From: Candidatus Omnitrophota bacterium
Lineage (GTDB): Bacteria; Omnitrophota; Gorgyraeia; JAUYCX01
Length of the DNA stretch: 24,000 bases
Direction: 5' to 3'
Assembly (NCBI GenBank): GCA_030692045.1
Contig: JAUYCX010000015.1
Coordinates: 60,065-84,064 of the forward strand
Part shown: one piece after another, positions 3,718 to 21,275 of the stretch
Numbering within the stretch: position 1 is the stretch's first letter
Layout of the letters: each line of letters begins with the position of its first letter
Position numbers and translations under genes: made by a program
Notes under the pieces: generated by a model
What the model was told of the DNA's origin: nothing
Database searches by the model: none
The model's input: only the letters and a program-made list of their open reading frames with translations

Positions 3718-3822
3718 TTCTTACCTCCCCTTATCTTCTTCAACATCTTAATATCTATCCAATATCTGTAAACTAAAAAACTTTTTTAAATTTTAGCTCT
3801 TTTCAGCTCCAAATCTGGCTCA

Positions 3823-4534
3823 AGCGAGCTGTTAGGTTCGTACGCACATTAAATTCTTTGGCAAATGTTTACGAGGAATTGCGGCGAAGTGAATGCAGAA
3901 ACTGACCATTTCGTTTAACAAGTTGTGGGAATTTCTGCAATGAACGAGCCGCAAACCGAAGTAAACGGCAAAGAATTTAGTGCGGTAGAATCCTAACAGC
4001 GAGCTAACTTAGCGTCTGCGAGCGAAAAAGAATTGAGTTGCTTAATAGAAATAACGGGTCCTGTCTTGGTTTGTTTTTCGCCGCACCGCTTGTCCTGCCC
4101 CAGCGAGGCAGGACTGCGCTCGAAGAAAATTTTCGCTCTGCCTGACTTCAATTATGACGGGCAACCCTGCCCGCTCAAATTTTCTAACGTGCGGCTCAAA
4201 TCTAAACCAAGCCATCCGTTAATCATTCAATTTTAGCGGGCTTGTTCAAAAACCTTTAGCAGATTTTAAAGGGGACTTTTTATCCGCCTTAGCAGAAGAC
4301 CACGGGTTTACTCCTAGATGGATGCGAAGAAAAAGCTGCTTCGGCGAGATGTCGCCAAAAAGCAAGCCGGAAACTTGTCAGCGGATAACCCCGACGAGTA
4401 TGCCGAAATTGTCGAAGAGAATTTCGGCATTTCTTACGAGTCGGGGTACATTAAGTTACCACGCCTGCGTGCCGCAACGCCGCACTTCAATGTGCAGGCA
4501 CGGGCTTGCCTGCGGGGCTCCATTGTCCCCTTTT
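3823..4534. ncRNA. GC-enriched, densely self-complementary noncoding block: candidate large structured RNA or nested palindromic-repeat cluster
   Basis: Consecutive helices read directly. (1) A 180-nt irregular hairpin at 3823-4005: GCTGTTAGG/CCTAACAGC, CGCAC.TAAATTCTTTG pairing, GTTTAC/GTAAAC, TGCGGC/GCCGCA, TGCAGAAA/TTTCTGCA. (2) A multi-stem domain at 4065-4211 closed by CTTGGTTT/AAACCAAG and GCCGCAC/GTGCGGC, containing GTCCTGCC/GGCAGGAC and CGGGCA/TGCCCG. (3) A domain at 4280-4388 closed by TTATCCGC/GCGGATAA. (4) A hairpin at 4389-4446: CCCCGAC/GTCGGGG and TGCCGAAATT/AATTTCGGCA. (5) Mutually exclusive GCCTGC/GCAGGC and GCAGGCA/TGCCTGC helices, followed by GGGG..CCCCTTTT. The ORFs called here overlap one another in two frames. 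Confidence 0.5.
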
Positions 4535-6140: not shown

Positions 6141-6162
6141 TATTTAACCTCCTTCAATGAGA

Positions 6163-6308
6163 CCACAATTTATGGAACGAAGTGAACATAAATTGTTTGG
6201 TCGAATTGAACCCAGCACTTATTTGTTCAGATTCATATCGCTGTCAAATAAGTGCTGGGTGTAATTCAGCCGAGCGACTTATGTCATTTCATTCCATAAG
6301 TCGCGGCT
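6163..6308. repeat. Three-hairpin palindromic module (copy B) filling the spacer between the YchF-like gene and purH
   Basis: HP1 6163-6200: ACAATTTATG/CATAAATTGT with loop GAACGAAGTGAA. HP2 6199-6271: GAATT..CCCAGCACTTATTTG/CAAATAAGTGCTGGG..AATTC. HP3 6268-6308: AGCCG.CGACTTATG/CATAAGTCG..CGGCT, whose loop reads GAATGAAATGA on the minus strand. Confidence 0.85.
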
Positions 6309-6311
6309 TCA

Positions 6312-11034: not shown

Positions 11035-11056
11035 TTATAACCTCCTTAATAAGCAG

Positions 11057-11243
11057 ATAACTTACGGAGCGAATGAAATGAGCGACGTAAGTTATAGCGT
11101 CTATCATTTACTTATCTATCAGCGTCTGCGAATTAATCCCGAAGCCTATCCCGAAAATATCGAAGAGATTTTCGGGATGTTTAGGCGAGGGACAAATTCA
11201 GCCAACAAACTTACGTTCGACTTACGTCTCCGTAAGTTTGGGC
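11057..11243. repeat. Three-hairpin palindromic module (copy C), homologous to 6163-6308
   Basis: HP1 11057-11095: ATAACTTACG/CGTAAGTTAT with a loop containing GAATGAAATGA. HP2 11130-11199: GAATT..ATCCCGAAAAT/ATTTTCGGGAT..AATTC with loop ATCGAAGAG. HP3 11201-11243: CAAACTTACG/CGTAAGTTTG. HP1 and HP3 are inverted copies of each other (both contain AACTTACGGAG....CGTAAGTT). Confidence 0.85.
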
Positions 11244-11248
11244 TTCAT

Positions 11249-11605
11249 TTAACCTAATTTATCAATCTTGGCAGCTAAAATAAAATCATTTTCAGACAAA
11301 CCGCCAATAGCATGCGTGGTAGCTGTAAGCTTCACCTTGTTATAATTAATCAAAATTGTAGGGTGATGGCCTTCTTGCTCGGCAATCTTTGCCACATTAT
11401 TTACAAAATCAAGGGAAGCTGAGAAATTCTTGAATTTAAATTCTTTTCTTATTTTGTTACCTTCTACCAATTCCCAGCCTGAAATCTGTGTTAAGAATTT
11501 ATTTGCCTCATCTAAAGTTAATGGCGGCATACCGCCTTCGCAGGGCTTACATTTTTTAGAAGAAAGGTCTATTTCGCAGGTTTTACCTATGTTTTTATCT
11601 TCCAT
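11249..11605 (-). CDS. Pterin-4-alpha-carbinolamine dehydratase (PCD/DCoH family)
   Basis: 118 aa. The EGHHPTILINYNKVKLTATTH core is typical of PCD, as is GWELVEGNKIRKEFKFKNF. Confidence 0.85.
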   Translation of the reverse strand: MEDKNIGKTCEIDLSSKKCKPCEGGMPPLTLDEANKFLTQISGWELVEGNKIRKEFKFKNFSASLDFVNNVAKIAEQEGHHPTILINYNKVKLTATTHAIGGLSENDFILAAKIDKLG

Positions 11606-21094: not shown

Positions 21095-21275
21095 GTAGAT
21101 TTAATATAATACTTGTTGAGGTTAGTCAATTTTTGGCTAACTAAAAAGGTAAACCAATCTTCCTTAAAGATAAAGGAAGACCCCGGAGTATTGTCGGGGG
21201 CCGTAAGGATGGGGCACAAAGCTAAAGGGTCCGCCAAATAAATTTGGCGAGACAGCCAGCTGCCAACAGGATAAT
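21095..21275 (+). promoter_or_regulatory. Structured 5' leader, candidate riboswitch or attenuator sensor domain (class unassigned)
   Basis: Hairpins at 21157-21179 (TCTTCCTT/AAGGAAGA) and 21180-21200 (CCCCGG../..CGGGGG), and an irregular 52-nt hairpin at 21213-21264 with apical stem CGCCAAA-TAAA-TTTGGCG. AUGGG at 21209-21213 can pair with CCCAU in the 5' arm of the terminator. Confidence 0.4.

Follow-up and report, generated by a model that had tools for sequence, protein, structure and literature searches.

Single-domain GIY-YIG proteins bracketed by hairpin repeats are known from the Ssn/NTS systems, in which enzymes of the Ssn family bind the hairpin repeats exclusively as ssDNA and cut upstream of the repeat (Chenal et al. 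2025, PMC11893778). Here, we describe a palindromic element in the genome of a “Candidatus Omnitrophota” bacterium, built of inverted terminal hairpins (HP-T) and a middle hairpin that can be of several types, one of which, HP-E, is our main subject. Two copies of HP-E are found in the window, by which we mean the whole stretch of 24,000 nucleotides analyzed. As in Ssn/NTS, the published system that comes closest to it, a tiny single-domain GIY-YIG gene is set between hairpin repeats in inverted orientation, gene-less hairpins are scattered by the hundreds between genes, and the repeats have a polarity; even the outer stem ATCCCGCC...GGCGGGAT resembles ATTCCCGCG...CGCGGGAAT. A repeat on both sides of a GIY-YIG gene, which in Ssn/NTS codes for ~90 to 100 aa, is found here for HP-T together with the CCCAGCAC repeat (proteins of 79 to 84 aa), but not for HP-E. 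There are other differences. The ends of this element are compound GA-interrupted HP-T and not CGTC-tagged 20- to 30-mers, a nested extra hairpin such as HP-E is not described for NTS, and the element sits precisely between the stop codon and the SD. The SRM motif (HGTCWY..YYVSBRH..WNVSBRG..RNCYNB) is not enriched in the genome (7 matches vs 5 for the reversed control), and neither HP-E nor HP-T had a match.

Other families of repeats are also comparable. With the REP/BIME and REPIN-RAYT of Proteobacteria, the element shares the short extragenic palindromes, the mosaic arrays, the inverted doublets, the structure-preserving substitutions, and the single-copy enzyme gene flanked by repeats. However, the gene here codes for a GIY-YIG nuclease and not for a Y1 HUH transposase, and there is no GTAG/CGTC tag. 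Like MITEs (Neisseria Correia) and the pneumococcal BOX/RUP, it is non-autonomous, modular, provided with inverted ends, and co-transcribed in operons, but no target-site duplication or DDE transposase parent was found for it. Finally, the recognition of structure over sequence (presumed here) and the conserved unpaired features on one strand are reminiscent of integron attC sites, although HP-E has neither cassette arrays nor the R''/L''-L'/R' organization. Our main reading, to which we give a probability of roughly 0.55, is that HP-E is one interchangeable middle-hairpin module of a modular palindromic repeat element in Omnitrophota and folds as ssDNA within a probably mobile repeat. It is not a stand-alone RNA gene. 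A full-text literature search found no paper describing the element. New here are the anatomy of the HP-E module with its class-wide conserved apex and its free but paired stem, the flip isomers, the GA-punctuated helices, and the negative outcome of the SRM and RAYT tests.

Two copies of one hairpin

The coordinates of both HP-E copies and of the composites that carry them are given in Table 1. They are genuine copies of a short DNA hairpin dispersed in Omnitrophota genomes. In each, an inner hairpin capped by GAA stands on an outer stem that includes a tandem G.A, with a bulge on the 3' side between the two. There is one non-Watson-Crick position per hairpin, G.G in copy 1 and A.G in copy 2, located just below the T-A and C-G pairs that close the GAA triloop. 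The first-pass annotation had pointed out two differences between the stems of both copies (G:C to C:G and T:A to A:T), each matched by a complementary change on the opposite arm, and this can be read directly in the window. It had also described an essentially identical apical loop. The GAA is indeed the same in both copies, but the loop is better described as a triloop closed by C-G and T-A, beside a conserved R.G mismatch, and not as one of 9 nt. The second pair of sequences that it had compared, ACTTACG/CGTAAGT with ACTTATG/CATAAGT, is correctly reported but belongs to HP-T and not to HP-E.

Table 1. Location of the hairpins and composite elements in the window
Feature	Position	Strand	Description
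HP-E copy 1	4389..4446	+	Covariance model, 51.5 bits
Copy 1, inner hairpin	4400-4430		ATGCCGAAATTGTC-GAA-GAGAATTTCGGCAT; 14 bp
Copy 1, outer stem	4389-4399 with 4436-4446		CCCCGACGAGT with ACGAGTCGGGG; pairing CCCCGAC-GA-GT / AC-GA-GTCGGGG
Copy 1, 3' bulge	4431-4435		TTCTT
Type C composite bearing copy 1	4282..4475	+	About 190 nt
HP-E copy 2	11138..11191	+	Covariance model, 48.9 bits
Copy 2, inner hairpin	11148-11178		ATCCCGAAAATATC-GAA-GAGATTTTCGGGAT
Copy 2, outer stem	11138-11147 with 11183-11191		Pairing CCC-GA-A-GCCT / AGGC-GA-GGG
Copy 2, 3' bulge			GTTT
Complete three-hairpin element, HP-E in the middle	11035..11252	-	Fills the gap between two minus-strand genes
A-end HP-T of this element	11241-11252		GGCTTCATTTAA; overlaps the TAA stop of the upstream gene
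B-end HP-T of this element	About 11047-11134		ACTTACG/CGTAAGT at 11060-11066 and 11086-11092; abuts the AAGGAGG SD of the downstream gene
ORF-less sister element	6141..6311	-	Between a ychF-like gene and purH; HP-T ends, ACTTATG/CATAAGT at 6277-6283 and 6295-6301

The type C composite consists of ATCCGCC...GGCGGAT hairpins, HP-E, and a CCACGG...CCGTGG hairpin, in this order. It has three copies in the genome, all of them immediately preceded by a terminator-like hairpin and its T run. Two further families of dispersed repeats are present downstream of purH, in a non-coding stretch of 1.1 kb (positions 3816 to 4011 and 4049 to 4222). One is a long hairpin of ~190 nt with 5 to 7 genomic copies (identity up to 97%) and the other a unit of ~165 nt with about 15 copies (76 to 93% identity). 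Elsewhere in the window, a c-di-GMP-I riboswitch (RF01051, positions 21138 to 21267, 43.5 bits) was the sole Rfam match, and a tRNA/tmRNA scan of the window found none.

Copy number and covariation

The assembly that holds the window has 2.19 Mb in 119 contigs and a GC content of 37%. A search pattern for the HP-E core (AAAWTNTCNNAGAGAWTTT) gave 19 matches in this genome and none in the reversed control. With a covariance model, we recovered 18 matches at 47 to 53 bits, clearly apart from the next best (35.6 bits), and the same loci scored only 24 to 29 bits when read on the reverse strand. Near-identical units were found at unrelated loci of the same genome. The stems are diverse (ATGCCG, ATCCCG, ATCCCA, GTGCCA, GTGTCA, ATGTCA, GCGCCG, and AAGCTA), each one facing its exact complement. 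In the alignment of 15 copies from this genome, all 13 pairs were 100% paired and 7 of them had double changes, a result that was reached by 0 of 500 shuffles. What we say about the outer stems comes from inspection of the copies, since the automatic classifier was poor on those of the CCC-GA-A-GCNT type.

We extended the search to a sample of 401 genomes of the same class; in the collection, the family is represented by this genome alone. The core pattern was present in 86 of them, with about 330 matches vs about 35 in the control. Ninety foreign loci were fetched, and of 113 pattern matches in total, 88 had at least 5 of 6 pairs below the fixed core. These 88 copies have as many as 64 different basal 6-mers. 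Among the 79 distinct sequences, coming from many genomes, all four Watson-Crick types occur at each of the six basal pairs, a variety that is not affected by the way in which the set was selected. Pairing is kept in 98% of the cells of the variable basal stem (6 to 7 bp), a percentage that is partly circular, as is the invariance of the apical arms, because copies with fewer than 5 of 6 basal pairs had been filtered out beforehand and the pattern itself fixed the arms. Double changes amounted to 259 cells, against 84 in the shuffles, and 0 of 500 shuffles matched the real alignment. The first-pass annotation would have had to be abandoned if stem changes had ceased to be preferentially compensatory with more copies aligned. 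Instead, they are overwhelmingly so in the alignments of both 15 and 79 copies. The same appears between orthologous copies of G358, G346, and G333, three congeners in which HP-E is found beside the same tRNA. There, a G-C pair of the inner stem has become A-T and a paired change has taken place in the outer stem.

At the apex, 19 nt follow the consensus AAAWT-R-TC-RNA-GA-G-AWTTT. It should be noted that the pattern fixed the arms (AAAWT) and the pairs that close the loop (TC/GA) but left free the R.G mismatch and the RNA triloop, and both came out conserved. The mismatch is retained in 86 of the 88 copies, and the loop R-N-A is mostly GAA (36 copies), followed by AAA (17), GTA (13), GCA (8), and GGA (7). 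The outer stem, in turn, is broken by the tandem G.A. A viral origin was not borne out, since the 2.9 million viral contigs of IMG/VR gave 16 pattern matches and a single true HP-E copy. This sole genuine copy of the viral set is carried by a contig of 5.2 kb (L143, IMGVR_UViG_3300025669_004029), which may be a misclassified Omnitrophota fragment.

A modular element with a nuclease gene

Inspection of the flanks of all copies placed HP-E after HP-T, on the same strand. HP-T, the inverted terminal hairpin of the element, has the sequence AAT-GA-N4-[ACTTAYG...CRTAAGT]-N4'-GA-ATT, and the genome has some 120 copies of it (135 pattern matches vs 18 in the control). Its N4 helix covaries freely (AGCC, GCAC, GCAG, CGAC, GACC, GCGC, and others), and further hairpins are nested within it, joined again by tandem G.A. 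The hairpins that follow HP-T in the genome are varied. They include the CCCAGCAC repeat, with 58 copies, HP-E itself, ATCCGCC...GGCGGAT, CCCTTGACA...TGTCAAGGG, CCCCTCACC..., and HP-E-like variants. Therefore, the middle position of the element is a variable slot. Gene-less copies carry a bare hairpin there, HP-E being one of at least six hairpin types. Lone half units, made of HP-T plus HP-E, also occur. As a separate observation, HP-T and its nested helices have a tandem G.A every 4 to 8 bp (AAT-GA-N4..., ATG-GA-GTCCGCC...GGCGGAC-GA-CAT) at ~120 sites, for example at positions 11047 to 11134 and 6147 to 6207 of the window, a design that leads to long rods punctuated by purine mismatches on one strand only.

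The sister element at 6141 links the gene-less copies to a gene. In the middle it has the CCCAGCACTTATTTG inverted repeat, whose arms bracket a GIY-YIG gene in full-length, autonomous-looking copies. Of eleven small GIY-YIG ORFs in the genome, four (79 to 84 aa) are found in the arrangement HP-T(A), CCCAGCACTAATTTT, ATG...ORF...TAA, AAAATTAGTGCTGGG, HP-T(B), SD. Two of these four are damaged, one by an internal TGA and the other by a premature stop. The 79- to 84-aa ORFs match PF01541 alone, and NCBIfam has no family for the small GIY-YIG proteins. Three other Omnitrophota MAGs have the same layout, with a protein identity of 56 to 87%. Two of these MAGs have the 15-nt inverted repeat without any change, and in the third its downstream arm differs by one base. 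The gene-bearing element and the gene-less copies have their inverted ends in common, which is the relationship expected of a MITE.

DNA, RNA, or repair

The first-pass annotation left open whether selection acts on the structure in RNA or in hairpin DNA. From the sequences compared here, the evidence leans toward HP-E acting as folded ssDNA. A function in RNA, as a protective or processing hairpin of operon transcripts or small RNAs or as a protein-binding RNA motif, seems unlikely to us, although it has several points in its favor. A role as mRNA stabilizer or RNase barrier has been proposed for REP elements. Such motifs as multi-helix units containing junctions, GNA-like triloops, and tandem G.A are classic in RNA, where these helices would be equally at home; moreover, whole elements lie in operons in a fixed orientation, the A-end being located at the stop codon of the gene upstream and the B-end supplying the SD, and each of the three type C copies comes after a terminator-like hairpin. 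However, the polarity of HP-E is unrelated to transcription. With respect to co-directional flanking genes, we counted 7 sense and 10 antisense copies in this genome and 5 and 6 in the others (12 vs 16 in total). Wobble pairs show neither excess nor asymmetry, since G.T plus T.G (10 of the 528 basal-stem cells) is about as rare as A.C plus C.A (7 cells), and no Rfam family matched HP-E, either at the gathering threshold or up to an E value of 10. Flipped isomers also exist. In about 6 of 77 copies, the asymmetric apex is inverted as compared with the outer stem, and genome G289 has an identical inner hairpin (TGCGGG...CCCGCA) in both apex states (L100 vs L101 and L053), as flip/flop isomers whose outer stem is otherwise reverse-complementary. 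In inverted pairs, one of the copies is always read as the weaker complement. This is the case of composites on contigs C14 and C51, where two inverted HP-E each read TCGNAGAG inwards from their own end, as terminal inverted repeats do. The tandem G.A of one strand is C.T/T.C on the other, and DNA parameters predict a higher stability for the GA strand than for its complement in 83 of 88 HP-E and 113 of 123 HP-T. This strand polarity, together with the results pointing to DNA, makes an ssDNA fold a better fit than an mRNA function.

Selection on the fold is not the only possible source of paired changes. Palindrome-templated repair could produce part of them without selection, and the flip isomers with identical arms within one genome, as well as stems in which nearly all pairs are Watson-Crick and intermediates are scarce in spite of so many different basal 6-mers, are what template switching would leave behind. 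That the paired changes are mainly a matter of DNA mechanics, with hairpin-templated repair copying mutations from arm to arm and occasionally inverting the loop, we find quite improbable, because such repair should erase mismatches and randomize the orientation of the apex. Yet, the R.G mismatch is kept almost without exception, the tandem G.A is conserved in outer stems and in HP-T, and the orientation of the apex is about 71:6 and not 1:1. Besides, the conservation of apical positions left free in the search implies sequence-specific selection. Mobilization of HP-E as a REP/REPIN-type element by a Y1 (RAYT or IS200-like) transposase of the genome is highly improbable. HP-E is a short, extragenic, high-copy palindrome, and the genome does have seven matches to PF01797 (Y1_Tnp), of which five lie in ORFs of 175 to 240 aa. 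Nevertheless, when we inspected the flanks of all seven Y1 genes, none had HP-E or HP-T, the conserved upstream flank of HP-E is GAATTNAYCCC, GTAG is merely one of the loop variants, and the element that has the same ends carries a GIY-YIG gene instead. The idea that the hairpin is coding sequence (e.g., ...YPENIEEIFGM...), left over from a gene or belonging to a small repeated peptide, is hardly credible. Both copies of the window can be read through in one open frame, but the best frame is stop-free in only 47 to 51 of the 88 copies over 85 nt, for which we rejected this reading. The changes compensate each other as nucleotides and are not synonymous, and the copies are found in either orientation in intergenic gaps.

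Candidate nuclease partner and probable mobility

Returning to the ssDNA module, the way in which it might move can be sketched. We infer that the GA strand takes up its fold while single-stranded, for instance in replication, and that a structure-specific protein would need this fold in order to recognize, nick, and copy the element. The chemistry of mobilization is likewise proposed. The leading candidate for this partner would be the Ssn-like GIY-YIG nuclease of the element itself. Copies with a broken stem would fail to propagate, and we propose that this is why surviving lineages show paired changes.

The link to the nuclease is good as far as the element family is concerned but weak for HP-E itself, which rarely adjoins GIY-YIG genes and has no association with them at the genome level. 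In this genome, no HP-E is directly beside a GIY-YIG gene, and in only 2 of 30 foreign 3-kb HP-E loci was there one nearby. In a small sample of five HP-E-rich and five HP-E-free genomes, small GIY-YIG ORFs were equally present. Genome G056 (89% complete) has 15 HP-E copies and UvrC as its sole GIY-YIG protein. On the other hand, an 88-aa GIY-YIG gene beside a tRNA (C14:287487) is flanked by CCC-GA-G...C-GA-GGG hairpins, which are of the same type as the outer stem of HP-E. This hints that HP-E elaborates on a hairpin of this kind, in whose loop it would be nested. A bolder version, which we consider doubtful, would make HP-E a mobile mini-hairpin of its own, about 31 to 35 nt long, with a conserved apex read by a protein and a paired body that evolves freely, inserting either way in Ssn-type CCCG...CGGG loops and forming with the HP-T rods a new class of substrates for minimal ssDNA nucleases. 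If this were true, there would be naturally diversified hairpin/enzyme pairs distinct from NTS/SsnA.

Whatever its partner, the element differs in presence between close relatives, a further result that favors an ssDNA fold in a mobile repeat over a role in RNA. In G056, a unit of HP-T plus HP-E (about 190 nt) occupies a gap between genes that in the congeneric G113 is only 34 nt long. In G358 and G333, the unit begins right at the 5' end of a tRNA (ctctcc|TAAATGA...), and it is absent from G022. In the sites compared between congeners, neither a target-site duplication nor a clean empty site was seen, and the flanking spacers have diverged. We conclude that the element is probably mobile.

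The module of the main reading has consequences beyond this locus. Omnitrophota genomes of ~2 Mb have hundreds of these structured modules exactly between stop codons and ribosome-binding sites, a compact natural system in which to study how selfish DNA sits harmlessly within operons. If the tiny GIY-YIG protein does read the hairpins as ssDNA, the Ssn enzymes would be extended to different and richer recognition structures, and ssDNA cutters that are both sequence- and structure-specific are of interest as tools. There is also a warning for annotation, since strong covariation in Omnitrophota intergenic hairpins should not be taken as evidence of a riboswitch or a small RNA.

Some minor observations concern other repeats and nucleases of the same genome. 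Contig C114 has, at positions 35 to 62, a single near-canonical Neisseria-type NTS/dRS3 hairpin (TGTCATTCCCGCGAAAGCGGGAATCCAT), although the SRM motif shows no enrichment in the rest of the genome. The five Y1_Tnp genes of RAYT-like size (C51:32364, C60, C71:23387, C76, and C30) have flanking repeats of their own, such as ggggacg.../...cgtcccc, that are unrelated to HP-E and HP-T. Small GIY-YIG ORFs of 82 to 90 aa adjoin tRNAs at three loci (L002 to L004; C14:287487-287708, C91:3975-4175, and C51:10767-10967), where a second copy of the tRNA 3' end follows the ORF (e.g., ...caagtcccacctccccga). These three look like insertions in or beside tRNA genes with duplication of the tRNA end.
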